NCBI GenBank assembly: GCA_046714535.1
Contig: JBKKAT010000853.1
Coordinates: 1-27,681 of the forward strand
DNA length: 27,681 nucleotides
Source: Acidobacteriota bacterium
GTDB lineage: Bacteria; Acidobacteriota; HRBIN11; JAKEFK01
Direction: 5' to 3'
In this document: positions 11,586-14,658 of the stretch, one piece after another
Layout of the letters: every line of letters begins with the position of its first letter
Position numbering within the stretch: position 1 is the first letter of the stretch
Translations under genes and position numbers: made by a program
Notes under the pieces: model-generated
What the model was told of the DNA's origin: nothing
Databases searched by the model: none
The model's input: only the letters and a program-made list of their open reading frames with translations

Positions 11586-13064
11586 CTACCCGGGGCAGTG
11601 GTTCTGCGAACAAGGTTTCCAGTAGAGGAAAACTCTTGTGCCGATTGCAGGCGGCCAATTCAGCGGACAGGCATTGAAAATTTCAAAGACGTTGTTCCCG
11701 ACGTCCTTCATTCCCTGGATAATTCCAAAGAACTCATCCCGTCCGGAAGTACCGGCCTTTCTCATGTCGCCGCAGTTGTAGAAGGAGTTTGCGCAGGTGG
11801 ACCCGGCTGGAAGTTGCACAATGGCCCATTGGCCGCGGACTCCAATTACGTTTCCGAAGATAAAGCCTCCTCTCGGCGCCGGATTTGTACAAGTGCCGGT
11901 GCCGCCACCGCCACCCCCGCCGCCACCACTTGTTACAGAAAGACTCTTTTGAGCAGTATCTTCCAGATCATCGTTGTCCTTGACCTTCAGCTTAACGGCA
12001 AAATTTCCAGTCCGGCCGAATACATGAGAGACCGTTCTGCCGTCTGCCGTCTTTCCGTCTCCGAAGTTCCAATCATAGGACCTGATGTTCCCATCCGAGT
12101 CACTGCTGGAGGACGCGCTGAATTGAAAATTCGTACTTGCGTCGCCACTCGATGGGGACACAGTAAAAGCTGCATTCGGATTTTTTCCACGGATTTTTAT
12201 TTCTTTTTGAATGGACGATCGCAATCCACTGTTATCTCTCACATTGAGTTCGACTGCAAAGAGATCCACTCTTGCAAATTTGTGCTTCACAGTCTTTCCG
12301 TGCGCTCTCGACCCATCTTTGAAGTCCCATTCATAATCCGTGATTCGTCCATCTTTGTCGTCACTACCGGAAGCATCAAACTGAAAAATTGTGTTGATCG
12401 GCCCGTTATGCGGTGAAAAAGTAAAACGCGCAACGGGGTACACAATATTCTCTATTTGTACATCTCTTTCGTTTGTACCCTTTCCCTGGTTGTTATCAGT
12501 GACAGTCAGCTTGACTTTGAAGTTGCCGGCCGCGTTATATACGTGCGTGGCTTGCTTGCCGCTTGCTGTGTGGCTATCACCAAAATCCCAACTATAGCCG
12601 GTGATGCTGCCATCCGGATCCCGGGAGGCTGAAGCGTCAAACGTGAAACGCGTGTCCTTGGATCCTTGCGACGGACTCATAGTAAAGGACGCAACGGGAG
12701 AACGATTATCACTGATGCTCAACAAATCCGAGTTCGTTGCGACTCCTGCTGGAGTGGCCACTCGAATCAGTCGTTTGCCGGAAGGCGCATCCGCATTTAC
12801 AGAAAAAACAACTTCCAGATCGTTGGGATTAACAATCCGGGTTCCATGGATTTTAATACCGGAATCCAAATCGACGGCTACAATTCCAGAGAAATTACTC
12901 CCCAAAACATGGCCTGTTACGTTTTGTTCACCGCGACTCACCTGAGCCGGCGACATTCCGGTTACGGTTGGTTTGTTTTCGCCTGACGTCAAATCGCTTG
13001 TGTTACATGCGTTGAAGGCGAGCAGGCAGGTGATGGCTAAAATAAAGAGAAGACACCCTCTCAT
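11586..13064 (-). CDS. Lipoprotein: IPT/TIG-like domain, 3 PKD domains, poly-Gly linker, 6-Cys C-terminal domain (paralog 1)
   Basis: Lipobox FNAC; three FDAS.S.D.DG.I..Y.W.FxDG PKD repeats; GGGGGGGGG linker; AGGAGG-type RBS upstream. Confidence 0.9.
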   Translation of the reverse strand: MRGCLLFILAITCLLAFNACNTSDLTSGENKPTVTGMSPAQVSRGEQNVTGHVLGSNFSGIVAVDLDSGIKIHGTRIVNPNDLEVVFSVNADAPSGKRLIRVATPAGVATNSDLLSISDNRSPVASFTMSPSQGSKDTRFTFDASASRDPDGSITGYSWDFGDSHTASGKQATHVYNAAGNFKVKLTVTDNNQGKGTNERDVQIENIVYPVARFTFSPHNGPINTIFQFDASGSDDKDGRITDYEWDFKDGSRAHGKTVKHKFARVDLFAVELNVRDNSGLRSSIQKEIKIRGKNPNAAFTVSPSSGDASTNFQFSASSSSDSDGNIRSYDWNFGDGKTADGRTVSHVFGRTGNFAVKLKVKDNDDLEDTAQKSLSVTSGGGGGGGGGTGTCTNPAPRGGFIFGNVIGVRGQWAIVQLPAGSTCANSFYNCGDMRKAGTSGRDEFFGIIQGMKDVGNNVFEIFNACPLNWPPAIGTRVFLYWKPCSQNHCPG

Positions 13065-13247
13065 TCTCCAGTCCTCCTAGAAAGAGCTTTTGGCTCCTTA
13101 GTTGCCTGCTATTCTACTGCAATTCCAGAACCTGCGTCAATACTATTGTTGTAGTATGACTTCCTAGATATTGTGTTCCAATTTTGGACAATACCAGCAA
13201 TTGTAATCTTTGGTTGTGAATCTTTTTATGGTTTAATCCAGAACCTA

Positions 13248-13282
13248 ATAAAATGAAAAATTAAAAATAAAAAATGAAAAAT
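13248..13282 (+). repeat. Left inverted repeat made of a heptamer tandem array
   Basis: From 13250: AAAATGA AAAATTA AAAATAA AAAATGA AAAAT(AG). Confidence 0.92.
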
Positions 13283-13310
13283 AGGCGGCTAAGGCACCCC
13301 GGTAGGTTTT

Positions 13311-13683
13311 ATGGATAGGAAAGAGAGAAAAGAGAGTTTAAGTTCCGGATTTACCGGTACGTTCTTCGCTTGATCCGGTTTCTAACGAAGCTCTCTAACG
13401 ATCCAGTTGTGTATGAAATAAAGAGACAACTGATTAAAAGTGGAACGTCGATGGGGGCCAATTACTTCGAAGCACAGGGAGCGAGTTCGAGAAATGATTT
13501 TAGAAACTTTTTCAGCTATGCACTCAAATCGTCCAACGAGAGGAAGTTTTGGCTTGCCCTTCTACGCGATAGTGGGTTGGTTTCTGCGGAACTGGCTGAA
13601 GAAAACGAATATCTCCTGGTTGAAACGAAAGAGATAGCAAATATTTTTGCTTCCAGCATCATCACTATGAAAAGAAAAAGTAA
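13311..13683 (+). pseudogene. Four-helix-bundle protein (23S rRNA IVP/Avd-like fold) with apparent single-base frameshifts at both ends, or fused to the downstream gene
   Basis: Core RQLIKSGTSMGANYFEAQGASSRNDF...ALKSSNERKFWLALL...ETKEIANIF is typical of the family. ATG 13311 and TAA 13681-13683 each lie one base out of frame with the core, next to A4 and A5 runs. Confidence 0.7.
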
Positions 13684-13717
13684 AAATGAAAAAGAAAAAA
13701 TGAAAAATGAAAAATAC
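13683..13717 (+). repeat. Internal heptamer array, same orientation as the left repeat
   Basis: AAAATGA AAAAGAA AAAATGA AAAATGA AAAATAC. Confidence 0.9.
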
Positions 13718-13760
13718 GGGCTCGGAGCTTACTTCATCTGCATGACTGTCTCATCCGCCC

Positions 13761-13795
13761 ATTTTTCATTTTTTATTTTTAATTTTTCATTTTAT
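13761..13795 (-). repeat. Right inverted repeat
   Basis: ATTTTTCATTTTTTATTTTTAATTTTTCATTTTAT. Confidence 0.92.
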
Positions 13796-14215
13796 ATGTC
13801 AGTAGCGATCTTTCTCGGCATCACATTTCTATTTTTCGCGATCCGTTCGCGCCCAATCCTTTTTCATTTGCTTTGCGCCGGACTGCTGGTTGGTTTTGTT
13901 TGGTGGACAGGCCGGACACTGATGGCCGGCTCGATCGGGGAATGGATCATTGCAACGGTTGGCCTGATCCTTTATTGGTTTGGTCTTACGATTGTGCGAA
14001 TCATGCTAACGCGCAGCGTAAGTCTTCACATGCTGGCGAACTATGCATTGGGGAGGGAAACGAAGACCGCCAGTCAAGGAATCGCGGACCGACTCCAGGA
14101 TGCCAGACAATTTGGTCTGGTATCCTCAACACAGGATGGATACAAGCTTACGGCGTTCGGATCTTTCATCGCCGGCATCGTGGCTTTTTGCTACTGGATT
14201 CTGAGAATCAAATAA
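13796..14215 (+). CDS. Small membrane protein (about 3 TM) with a winged-helix-like C-terminal segment, paralog A
   Basis: MSVAIFLG...; hydrophobic N-terminal half, then RSVSLHML...IADRLQDARQFGLVSSTQDGYKLTAFG. It is in frame with the four-helix core. Confidence 0.7.
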   Translation: MSVAIFLGITFLFFAIRSRPILFHLLCAGLLVGFVWWTGRTLMAGSIGEWIIATVGLILYWFGLTIVRIMLTRSVSLHMLANYALGRETKTASQGIADRLQDARQFGLVSSTQDGYKLTAFGSFIAGIVAFCYWILRIK

Positions 14216-14658
14216 TGGATGTCCTTATTATTGTTGTTGCCGGATTTTTGATTGCTGTTTGCCTGAGCGAAGTTGCACTGAAGGGTACCAAACTTCAAAC
14301 GGGTCTCACGAAGGTTGTGCTGGTCCATATTGCAGTAGCAGGCTCGCTGCTGGTTTATTTTTTTGCAACGGGACGAATGGTGTGGGACGCGCTTCTGATT
14401 TTCTGGGCAGGAGCATTTTTGACATGGTTTGGCGTCCGGAGTCATATGGAAAGCTCGATCCTTTTGCGAATGCTATATCTATTGCGTAGAGGACTCGTCT
14501 CTGAGAGCCGGTTACTGCAAGAATATGAATCCCACTATGGAGAAGCTCAACGCCTGGAAGAGTTATTCCGTGGAGGTCTTCTGGAGCAAACACCGGATGG
14601 AATCGTGGTTACATCTAAGGGCAAATTTATTCTTCGCGTTGTTTCCTTTTTAAAATGA
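14215..14658 (+). CDS. Small membrane protein (about 3 TM) with a winged-helix-like C-terminal segment, paralog B
   Basis: TAATG overlap with the previous stop; MDVLIIVV...SSILLRML...QRLEELFRGGLLEQTPDGIVVTSKG. Confidence 0.75.
   Translation: MDVLIIVVAGFLIAVCLSEVALKGTKLQTGLTKVVLVHIAVAGSLLVYFFATGRMVWDALLIFWAGAFLTWFGVRSHMESSILLRMLYLLRRGLVSESRLLQEYESHYGEAQRLEELFRGGLLEQTPDGIVVTSKGKFILRVVSFLK

Follow-up and report, generated by a model that had tools for sequence, protein, structure and literature searches.

An IVP-family gene within inverted heptamer arrays of a soil acidobacterium resembles the intervening sequences of 23S rRNA

We analysed a stretch of 27,681 nucleotides (hereafter the window; contig JBKKAT010000853.1 of assembly GCA_046714535.1) from an uncultured soil acidobacterium whose own assembly comprises 939 contigs and is 83% complete. 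Matches to its DnaE at 77-80% identity carry the label Acidobacteria or Acidobacteriota, and the match at 95% is labelled just "bacterium". At positions 13248-13795 the window holds a 548-bp cassette that carries a single gene of the PF05635/TIGR02436 family, here called IVP, between arms made of inverted heptamer repeats. The cassette separates the region upstream of a minus-strand PKD gene from the start codon of an operon with two small membrane genes and a GT-C gene. Our best reading is that it is probably a counterpart, outside rRNA, of the intervening sequences (IVSs) found in rRNA, and that it is transcribed within the host mRNA.

The arms are exact reverse complements over 35 nt, at 13248-13282 and 13761-13795, as the preliminary description of the locus had stated; direct reading of the sequence and a repeat search agree on this. 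The repeat search extends the match to 13248-13296 and 13747-13795 (49 nt, 92% complementarity). The left arm (13248-13296) starts with five AAAATNA heptamers at 13248-13282 (AAAATGA, AAAATTA, AAAATAA, AAAATGA and AAAATAG), and its inner 14 nt, beginning GGCGG, pair imperfectly with 13747-13760 in both the repeat search and the RNA fold. The right arm (13761-13795) consists of five TNATTTT heptamers. The five variable unit positions are mirrored exactly between the arms, which is more than two arrays of a shared unit would produce; each arm is therefore a copy of the other. Healing of a break by repeat addition at both DNA ends was considered and dropped, since independent additions would not mirror the variable positions. 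We also noted that the inner left arm at 13283-13299 (GGCGGCTAAGGCACCC) forms a small G+C hairpin, which on the minus strand is followed by the T-run of the arm and resembles a terminator for antisense transcripts.

A third A-rich heptamer array lies inside the cassette at 13670-13716. It has the orientation of the left arm, of which it is a direct repeat (34 nt, 91%), and the repeat search pairs it with the right arm (33 nt, 91%, 45-nt loop). The predicted hairpin has an energy of -38.8 kcal/mol. Its G+C-richer loop of 44 nt (13717-13760) ends in a 3' part, 13747-13760 (CCGCC), that pairs with the inner left arm. This array was absent from all 60 homologue loci tested and thus represents a local state of the window, not a family feature. 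Position 13795 is the last of the right arm, and the downstream membrane gene begins directly after it with the ATG at 13796-13798; the preliminary description had recognized this adjacency but had left one base between arm and start codon. The membrane gene (13796-14215) is the first of its operon, codes for a 139-aa protein with no Pfam or NCBIfam match, and is in frame with the IVP gene.

Alignment with the syntenic congener G001 shows that the cassette is an insertion relative to that genome (G numbers denote related genomes and C numbers contigs, those without a G number being from the window's genome). Both genomes have the gene order sulfatase, minus-strand PKD gene, two small membrane genes and GT-C gene, and their GT-C proteins are 71% identical. 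The spacer from the PKD start to the membrane gene measures 731 bp in the window vs 245 bp in G001, where it contains no gene, no arms and no heptamers. The preliminary description had regarded the cassette as a mobile unit for which a relative might hold an empty site, and G001 does. A 110-bp block (window 13136-13245) upstream of the divergent PKD gene and membrane operon is conserved in G001, and the insertion begins right after it; in G001 some 60 nt come next, among them a GAAGG ribosome-binding site and the ATG. The window's membrane protein has an N-terminus about 6 codons shorter than its likely G001 orthologue, with no room for a Shine-Dalgarno sequence. Leader and initial codons therefore seem to have been replaced by the insertion, the likely G001 start lying some 6 codons further upstream. 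Sequence divergence prevents us from placing the junction in G001.

The surroundings of the cassette are those of ordinary protein-coding genes. We found no rRNA match within 12900-14000, where the flanking genes code for proteins, and no Rfam family matched the locus. A search of a phage genome collection (DNA) and of IMG/VR (protein pattern) returned no phage or viral carriers of the window's IVP clade.

Comparison of gene flanks shows that the gene-plus-arms layout recurs around close relatives of the IVP gene in many phyla. Proteins 60-74% identical to the window's IVP occur in bins labelled WOR-3, Patescibacteria, Latescibacterota, Aminicenantia, Omnitrophota, Planctomycetes and others. 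On the four homologue contigs that we inspected, the gene has co-directional neighbours from unrelated operons, such as the genes for ferredoxin and alpha subunits of a 2-oxoacid oxidoreductase or those for a sugar transferase and a glycosyltransferase. Some inverted flank match is present on all four contigs, and long A-rich/T-rich heptamer arms of 35-47 nt are present on three. For each locus we compared the 130 nt before the gene with the 130 nt after it; the best inverted match scored at least 15 at 56 of 67 reference-genome loci (about 8 in shuffles). The preliminary description had tied its reading to an association of family members elsewhere with such arms, and the inverted heptamer arms at these 56 loci favour it. 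Among the open reading frames (ORFs) neighbouring the same loci, which served as a control, 4 of 139 reached a score of at least 15; one of these (125 aa) is IVP-sized and was left unchecked.

The arm unit changes with protein distance from the window: AAAAATA/AAATATC is found near it, AAAGTTA further away, and then AATTTTA. Protein identity tracks the sharing of flank 6-mers with a Spearman coefficient of 0.47 (matched by 0 of 999 permutations), compared with 0.19 for base composition alone. Both neighbours are co-directional with the IVP gene at 41 of 56 loci, and at none of the 56 is the gene antisense to both. The gaps beside the IVP genes are about 52 and 59 nt, or roughly one arm length. 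The strong orientation bias could be explained by selection for expression or by an insertion process that acts at the level of RNA.

The IVP gene itself lies at 13311-13687 on the plus strand, its limits taken from the homologue alignment and its start codon being the ATG at 13311, and it is predicted to code for a four-helix bundle. The ORF scores 55.8 bits against PF05635 (cut-off 33.8) and 65.4 bits against TIGR02436 (cut-off 24). These are the only family matches of the cargo, and the cassette carries no transposase; the claim that an IVP-fold gene is the sole cargo therefore stands. The Pfam domain spans 13355-13636. A profile of the window's clade matches PDB chain 2rld_A (E 6e-18), which belongs to an uncharacterized protein with five chains in the entry. 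Homologues are 124-130 aa long and align with N-termini of the form M..K..LKQEFK.RIY and C-termini of the form TMKGKKK. The motif GxxRxxxSxxxNxxE is given for the family in a passage of PMC3936711. S44, N48 and E51 of this core are invariant in our alignment; at the R position the window has K and its clade either R or K, and the G is not kept.

Two forms of the gene exist in the source run, a soil run in which 92% of the words of the stretch occur; from this run we used the assembler contigs. In the assembled allele the ATG at 13311 is out of frame with the domain, and the frame is broken near 13324. Contigs over 13296-13354 show the window's form (depth 3.6) and a form with an additional G behind 13324 (depth 3.4). 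The +G allele brings ATG 13311 into frame and gives a normal N-terminus, MDRKEEKREFKFRIY... Homologues place the end of the protein at about 13685, yet there is no stop; the frame remains open to 14215, passing through the third array, where it codes for a K/E-rich tail, then crossing loop and right arm before it merges in frame with the membrane gene. In the +G allele this frame is 301 aa long and comprises the IVP domain, a 36-residue array-encoded linker and the 139-aa membrane protein. One source-run contig agrees with the window throughout 13325-13759, which shows that the DNA itself contains the third array and lacks the stop. Judged from the reading frame, the 301-aa fusion may be a real product or an accident of the lost stop.

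We found sequences like the window's arm on about 20 other contigs of its genome. These A/T loci (n = 23) comprise about 16 gene-less hairpins and 7 single arrays. Each hairpin consists of an A-rich heptamer array, a G+C-richer loop of 17-30 nt and a mirrored T-rich array, and nearly fills the gap between a stop and a start codon: 7 and 0 nt are left at C919, and 3 and 2 nt at C272. Start codons after A/T hairpins in this genome mostly lie 0-7 nt past the T-rich arm, with 28 nt at C17. The loops of the gene-less A/T hairpins have no sequence in common with one another or with the cassette.

Heptamers also dominate the tandem repeats of the genome as a whole. Period 7 is the commonest array class, with 243 arrays of at least 3 copies vs 55 of period 6, and these 243 arrays fall into about 10 unit families. 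We detected 66 inverted array pairs, 62 of them with loops below 60 nt (mostly 10-30 nt). Among the short-loop pairs, 24 lie between co-directional, 8 between divergent and 2 between convergent genes; the median distance of the pairs is 2 nt to stop codons and 12.5 nt to start codons. A function as terminators was considered for these hairpins and rejected, as only 2 of the 62 lie between convergent genes and the stems are made of A/U pairs. The A/T array pattern occurs about 30 times in the window's genome and 8 times in G004, and other relatives have 0-2 instances or plain poly-A runs (G003). At G003:C7:52144-52251 a run of about 45 A is followed, about 30 nt on, by about 30 T, forming an inverted homopolymer pair.

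The family search placed IVP matches on five other contigs of the window's genome (C675, C523, C243, C857 and C202). The first four genes have inverted heptamer arms with a different unit at each: GTGCTGA at C675, TAGTGAC at C523, AGAGTTA/AAGGTTA at C243, where the gene is broken by stop codons, and CATGCTC at C857. Of the genome's seven most abundant array families, five correspond to the window's unit and these four. The C202 match covers only profile positions 18-105, and its sole hairpin, built of longer repeats, lies downstream. Most IVP genes in five relatives from the same bacterial family likewise have inverted arms of their own unit, mostly with a period of 6-8 nt.

Some of these matches look degenerate or unusual. 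At C243:3380-3695 the IVP gene, apparently a decaying copy, contains an in-frame TAG and a TAA but retains long inverted arrays of AGAGTTA/AAGGTTA on both sides. At C202:2151-2414 the match begins at profile position 18 within a 173-aa open frame, which has a Q/E/K-rich tail made by 9-nt-like repeats and is followed by a hairpin of GAGCC/GGCTC-type repeats, not by heptamer arms. In G006 a broken IVP gene with two TGA stops (C4:1945714-1946004, minus strand) lies about 4.5 kb upstream of the homologue of the window's GT-C gene.

Gene-less hairpins are gained or lost between close relatives. Three A/T hairpins (C741, C131 and C919) are absent from the orthologous spacers of G002, where the flanking N-termini are 87-97% identical; the G002 spacer is 12 nt long at the C741 orthologue and holds short G+C-rich palindromes at the C131 and C919 orthologues. 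In G003 the C131 spacer contains a hairpin with AAATATC arms, nearly the same as the arms of that genome's own IVP of the window's clade. Short G+C-rich palindromes stand in relatives where the window's genome has A/T hairpins, both at the C919 orthologue (G002, G001) and upstream of dnaE (G002, G006). One example is the C919-orthologue spacer of G001, in which a 20-nt tgcaggc...gcctgcga unit occurs twice. It seems that a hairpin is always present in these intercistronic spacers, but that its kind varies.

Our preferred reading, that of an rRNA-IVS-like cassette in a host mRNA, can be set out as a sequence of steps. The cassette would be transcribed as part of the host mRNA, without a promoter of its own. 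The co-orientation of the homologues with their neighbours and the lack of room for a promoter argue for such transcription with the host operon. In the RNA the arms would pair into a stem of 35-49 bp with the host AUG at its foot. In the predicted fold of 13236-13810, the minimum-energy structure (-151.8 kcal/mol, z = -3.3) closes this left-right stem round the whole gene. RNase III, whose gene is present in all six relatives, might then cut the stem, by analogy with the element of the same family in 23S rRNA. Cleavage would split the transcript into an IVP and a host message and leave the downstream gene with a free U-rich leader. The IVP gene would be dispensable, decaying cargo and the hairpin the persistent part. 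Decay of the gene is suggested by the frameshift allele and the lost stop and, at other sites in the genome, by an IVP match that is broken and another that lacks its N-terminal part. Finally, recombination between the direct arrays (left and internal) could delete the gene and leave a gene-less hairpin abutting the ATG. Mobility as a unit, RNase III processing and the role of the protein are the parts of this reading that we infer.

Several results weigh against this reading. The preliminary description had placed the insertion between a promoter and a start codon. The insertion stands, as the empty G001 spacer attests, but the promoter does not: upstream of the left arm we found only the conserved 110-bp block and no plus-strand consensus promoter at the threshold of our scan. 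A promoter-like site lies on the minus strand at 13140-13111. The excision and inversion junctions that had been proposed were not seen, nor were deletions or empty alleles, in the assembler contigs of four public runs, which show presence and not absence; other public runs hold only the PKD gene end of a related strain. We found no RNA run containing the locus among the public runs searched, and neither PF14622 nor PF00636 found RNase III in the window's own 83%-complete assembly. The hairpin loops share nothing with the cassette, so the descent of gene-less hairpins from it by deletion is not supported. G001 has 33 heptamer arrays per Mb, yet no IVP match was found in its 73%-complete assembly, and G004 has A/T arrays with no window-clade IVP found by the queries used. 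Overall, no enzyme, target duplication, excision or deletion allele was seen in the contigs. Strict dependence of the arrays on IVP genes was a separate proposal, which we rejected because of the G001 arrays.

The abundance of gene-less hairpins allows a second explanation, in which the host itself makes intergenic hairpins. Slippage would build the arrays, some process would keep the arms complementary, and the IVP gene would be a passenger in one loop. We consider this origin unlikely, although it accounts for much: gene-less hairpins outnumber gene-bearing ones by more than 10:1, their loops are mutually unrelated, they are present in G001, and relatives carry different hairpin types at the C131 spacer. 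The same explanation holds that the hairpins act in mRNA processing, stability or translation and that gene and arms do not travel together, which we likewise doubt. Two pairs of IVP proteins speak for it, as they are about 71% (C857 vs G002:C213) and about 63% (G006:C4:1391314 vs G002:C213) identical and have unrelated arm units. A rule of one unit per IVP clade fails for these two pairs and for G004; it holds for the window's clade and G003. A passenger gene does not account for the 60-74% identical relatives, from WOR-3 to Aminicenantia, which all have similar A-rich heptamer arms in unrelated neighbourhoods. Nor does it account for the correlation between protein identity and shared flank 6-mers, or for the gene-less hairpin of G003 that has the arm sequence of that genome's window-clade IVP.

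The IVS-like reading can be extended, tentatively, to a two-part system. By analogy with systems of dispersed hairpins and cognate genes (see below), it is conceivable but rather doubtful that IVP pentamers and heptamer hairpins belong together, with each IVP clade recognizing its own 7-nt unit in DNA or RNA and helping to spread, maintain or process the matching hairpins. The gene cassette would then be the autonomous form, gene-less hairpins would derive from it (for instance, through loss of the segment between direct arrays), and the 23S IVS would be one landing site. If true, this would explain why many bacterial genomes have an excess of heptamers among their long simple repeats.

A classical DNA transposon or miniature inverted-repeat transposable element, mobilized by a transposase encoded elsewhere and making a TA duplication, would account for the perfect terminal inverted repeats, for presence and absence between relatives and for the same arm type at about 23 other loci. 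We regard it as improbable. The TA target duplication suggested by the preliminary description is not supported: the flanks, CTA on the left and ATG on the right, do not repeat, no direct repeat flanks the element, and a TA duplication can be drawn only by shifting the element boundary. The copies have a unit in common, not an arm sequence, a length or a loop, and the arms differ at each IVP gene of the genome. Unlike transposase binding ends, the arms are repetitive arrays of variable unit number. The insertions also fall exactly between stop and start codons with a bias in orientation.

An RNA switch, in which the right arm pairs with either the left arm or the internal array and translation of the membrane gene depends on which partner is taken, has slightly less in its favour and is very improbable. 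The two stems are mutually exclusive, with duplex energies of -50.0 kcal/mol for left and right arm vs -35.8 kcal/mol for internal array and right arm; the latter is local and would be the first to form as the RNA is transcribed. Both stems directly adjoin the AUG. However, both are predicted to bury the same right arm, a U-rich tract up to the AUG, and thus make no difference to start-codon access; moreover, the third array is missing from 60 of 60 homologue loci and Rfam offers no match. An assembly artefact, in the form of a chimeric join or a wrong orientation at low-complexity repeats, is hardly credible even for a bin of 939 contigs in which source-run k-mer contigs break at both arms, because independent source-run contigs cover 12900-13246, 13284-13759 and 13796-14300 and differ only by a substitution at 12957 and the 1-nt indel allele, the imperfect inner arm parts make the two junctions distinguishable, and dozens of independent homologue assemblies have the same orientation and layout.

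Two old puzzles may be one: the conserved small ORF in inserts of some 23S rRNA genes and the excess of heptamer repeats, often in inverted pairs, between bacterial genes. The same gene family lies in the same kind of hairpin in ordinary mRNA contexts, and gene-less hairpins come and go between close relatives at stop-start gaps. To these observations the window adds a filled/empty pair, IVP arm units that match the main gene-less hairpin families, hairpin turnover, a polymorphic frameshift and a direct-repeat configuration. The system offers three testable handles: the predicted RNA stem that ends at a start codon, a 125-aa protein that could be purified, and several hairpin families in one genome, five of them also found around an IVP gene. 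If the link between gene and hairpin is causal, it would define a widespread class of selfish or regulatory elements that moves without a recognizable recombinase.

We compared the cassette to known systems that have a related protein or a related arrangement of repeats. Avd, the accessory protein of diversity-generating retroelements (DGRs), was reportedly described by Alayyoubi in 2013 as a pentameric bundle that binds reverse transcriptase and nucleic acid. The IVP protein has the same fold family and pentameric bundle. Unlike the Avd setting, the window's contig has no reverse transcriptase and no template or variable repeat; the only RVT_1 match of the genome lies on contig C455, so there is no DGR context. 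A closer parallel in arrangement is given by repetitive extragenic palindromic sequences (REPs), the hairpins they form (REPINs) and the REP-associated tyrosine transposases (RAYTs), on which Nunvar in 2010 and Bertels and Rainey in 2011 are said to have reported. REPs and REPINs are dispersed short intergenic hairpins accompanied by a single-copy gene flanked by inverted copies, and several families and genes may coexist in a genome. RAYTs are homologues of HUH Y1 transposases, and REPs are conserved sequences, not tandem arrays. The dispersed hairpin families and cognate genes of the window's genome resemble this arrangement, and the analogy fits five of its seven main unit families. The IVP protein differs from a RAYT in being a small helical bundle, in which we know of no catalytic motif, and not an HUH Y1 transposase, and the link between gene and family is loose here.

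Other accounts deal with the gene family or the repeats separately. Zhang, Doak and Ye (2013, PMC3936711) describe, in their passages on the family, a PF05635 gene between cmr3 and cmr2 and a cas-locus function that co-occurs with nuclease genes, and a figure legend of a CRISPR-discovery study lists the family among the domains of CRISPR-linked proteins (PMC10910872). Like the homologues compared here, the cmr3-cmr2 gene stands between closely spaced, co-directional genes of an operon to which it is unrelated; unlike in the window, the passages of PMC3936711 on this gene mention no repeats or arms. GGGAATC heptamer arrays that form inverted pairs between co-oriented genes are described in the relevant part of a Xanthomonas study (Rehm et al. 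2015, PMC4692102), and heptanucleotide families in that of a study of Geobacter metallireducens (PMC2700814). As far as these parts go, such arrays resemble ours in that tandem 7-nt units stand in convergent pairs in intergenic regions, mostly between co-oriented genes and near gene ends, and vary between close relatives. They differ in that here and in homologues an IVP gene lies between the arms, whereas the parts of PMC4692102 and PMC2700814 that treat the arrays tie them to no gene family. The AAAATNA units of the window are also A/T-rich and, unlike the Xanthomonas type, cannot form G-quadruplexes. In the literature that we searched, we found no paper that ties PF05635 genes outside rRNA to flanking inverted heptamer arrays.

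The closest likeness is to the ORF-bearing IVSs of 23S rRNA. The IVP family was first found within rRNA IVSs. As in the elements of Leptospira and Coxiella, a protein of the same family is encoded in the loop of a long terminal stem (28 bp in Coxiella, 35-49 bp in the window). The S23p-bearing 23S rRNA IVS of Coxiella burnetii has a 28-bp stem with GACAGAT heptamers, is cut within the stem by RNase III and holds a decaying ORF (Warrier et al. 2016, PMC4990558). The window has in common with it the tandem heptamers on the 5' side, a decay-prone ORF and, in our reading, a location within a host transcript. In contrast to the 23S IVS, whose place is helix 25 or 45 of a 23S rRNA gene, the cassette lies outside rRNA genes, between the upstream region of a protein gene and its start codon; its arms are wholly heptamer arrays, a third array is present, and the genome holds many gene-less hairpins of the same kind. 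We conclude that the cassette belongs to a recurrent class that is, as far as we found, undescribed, and that it is kin to the rRNA intervening sequence with an S23p/IVP ORF.

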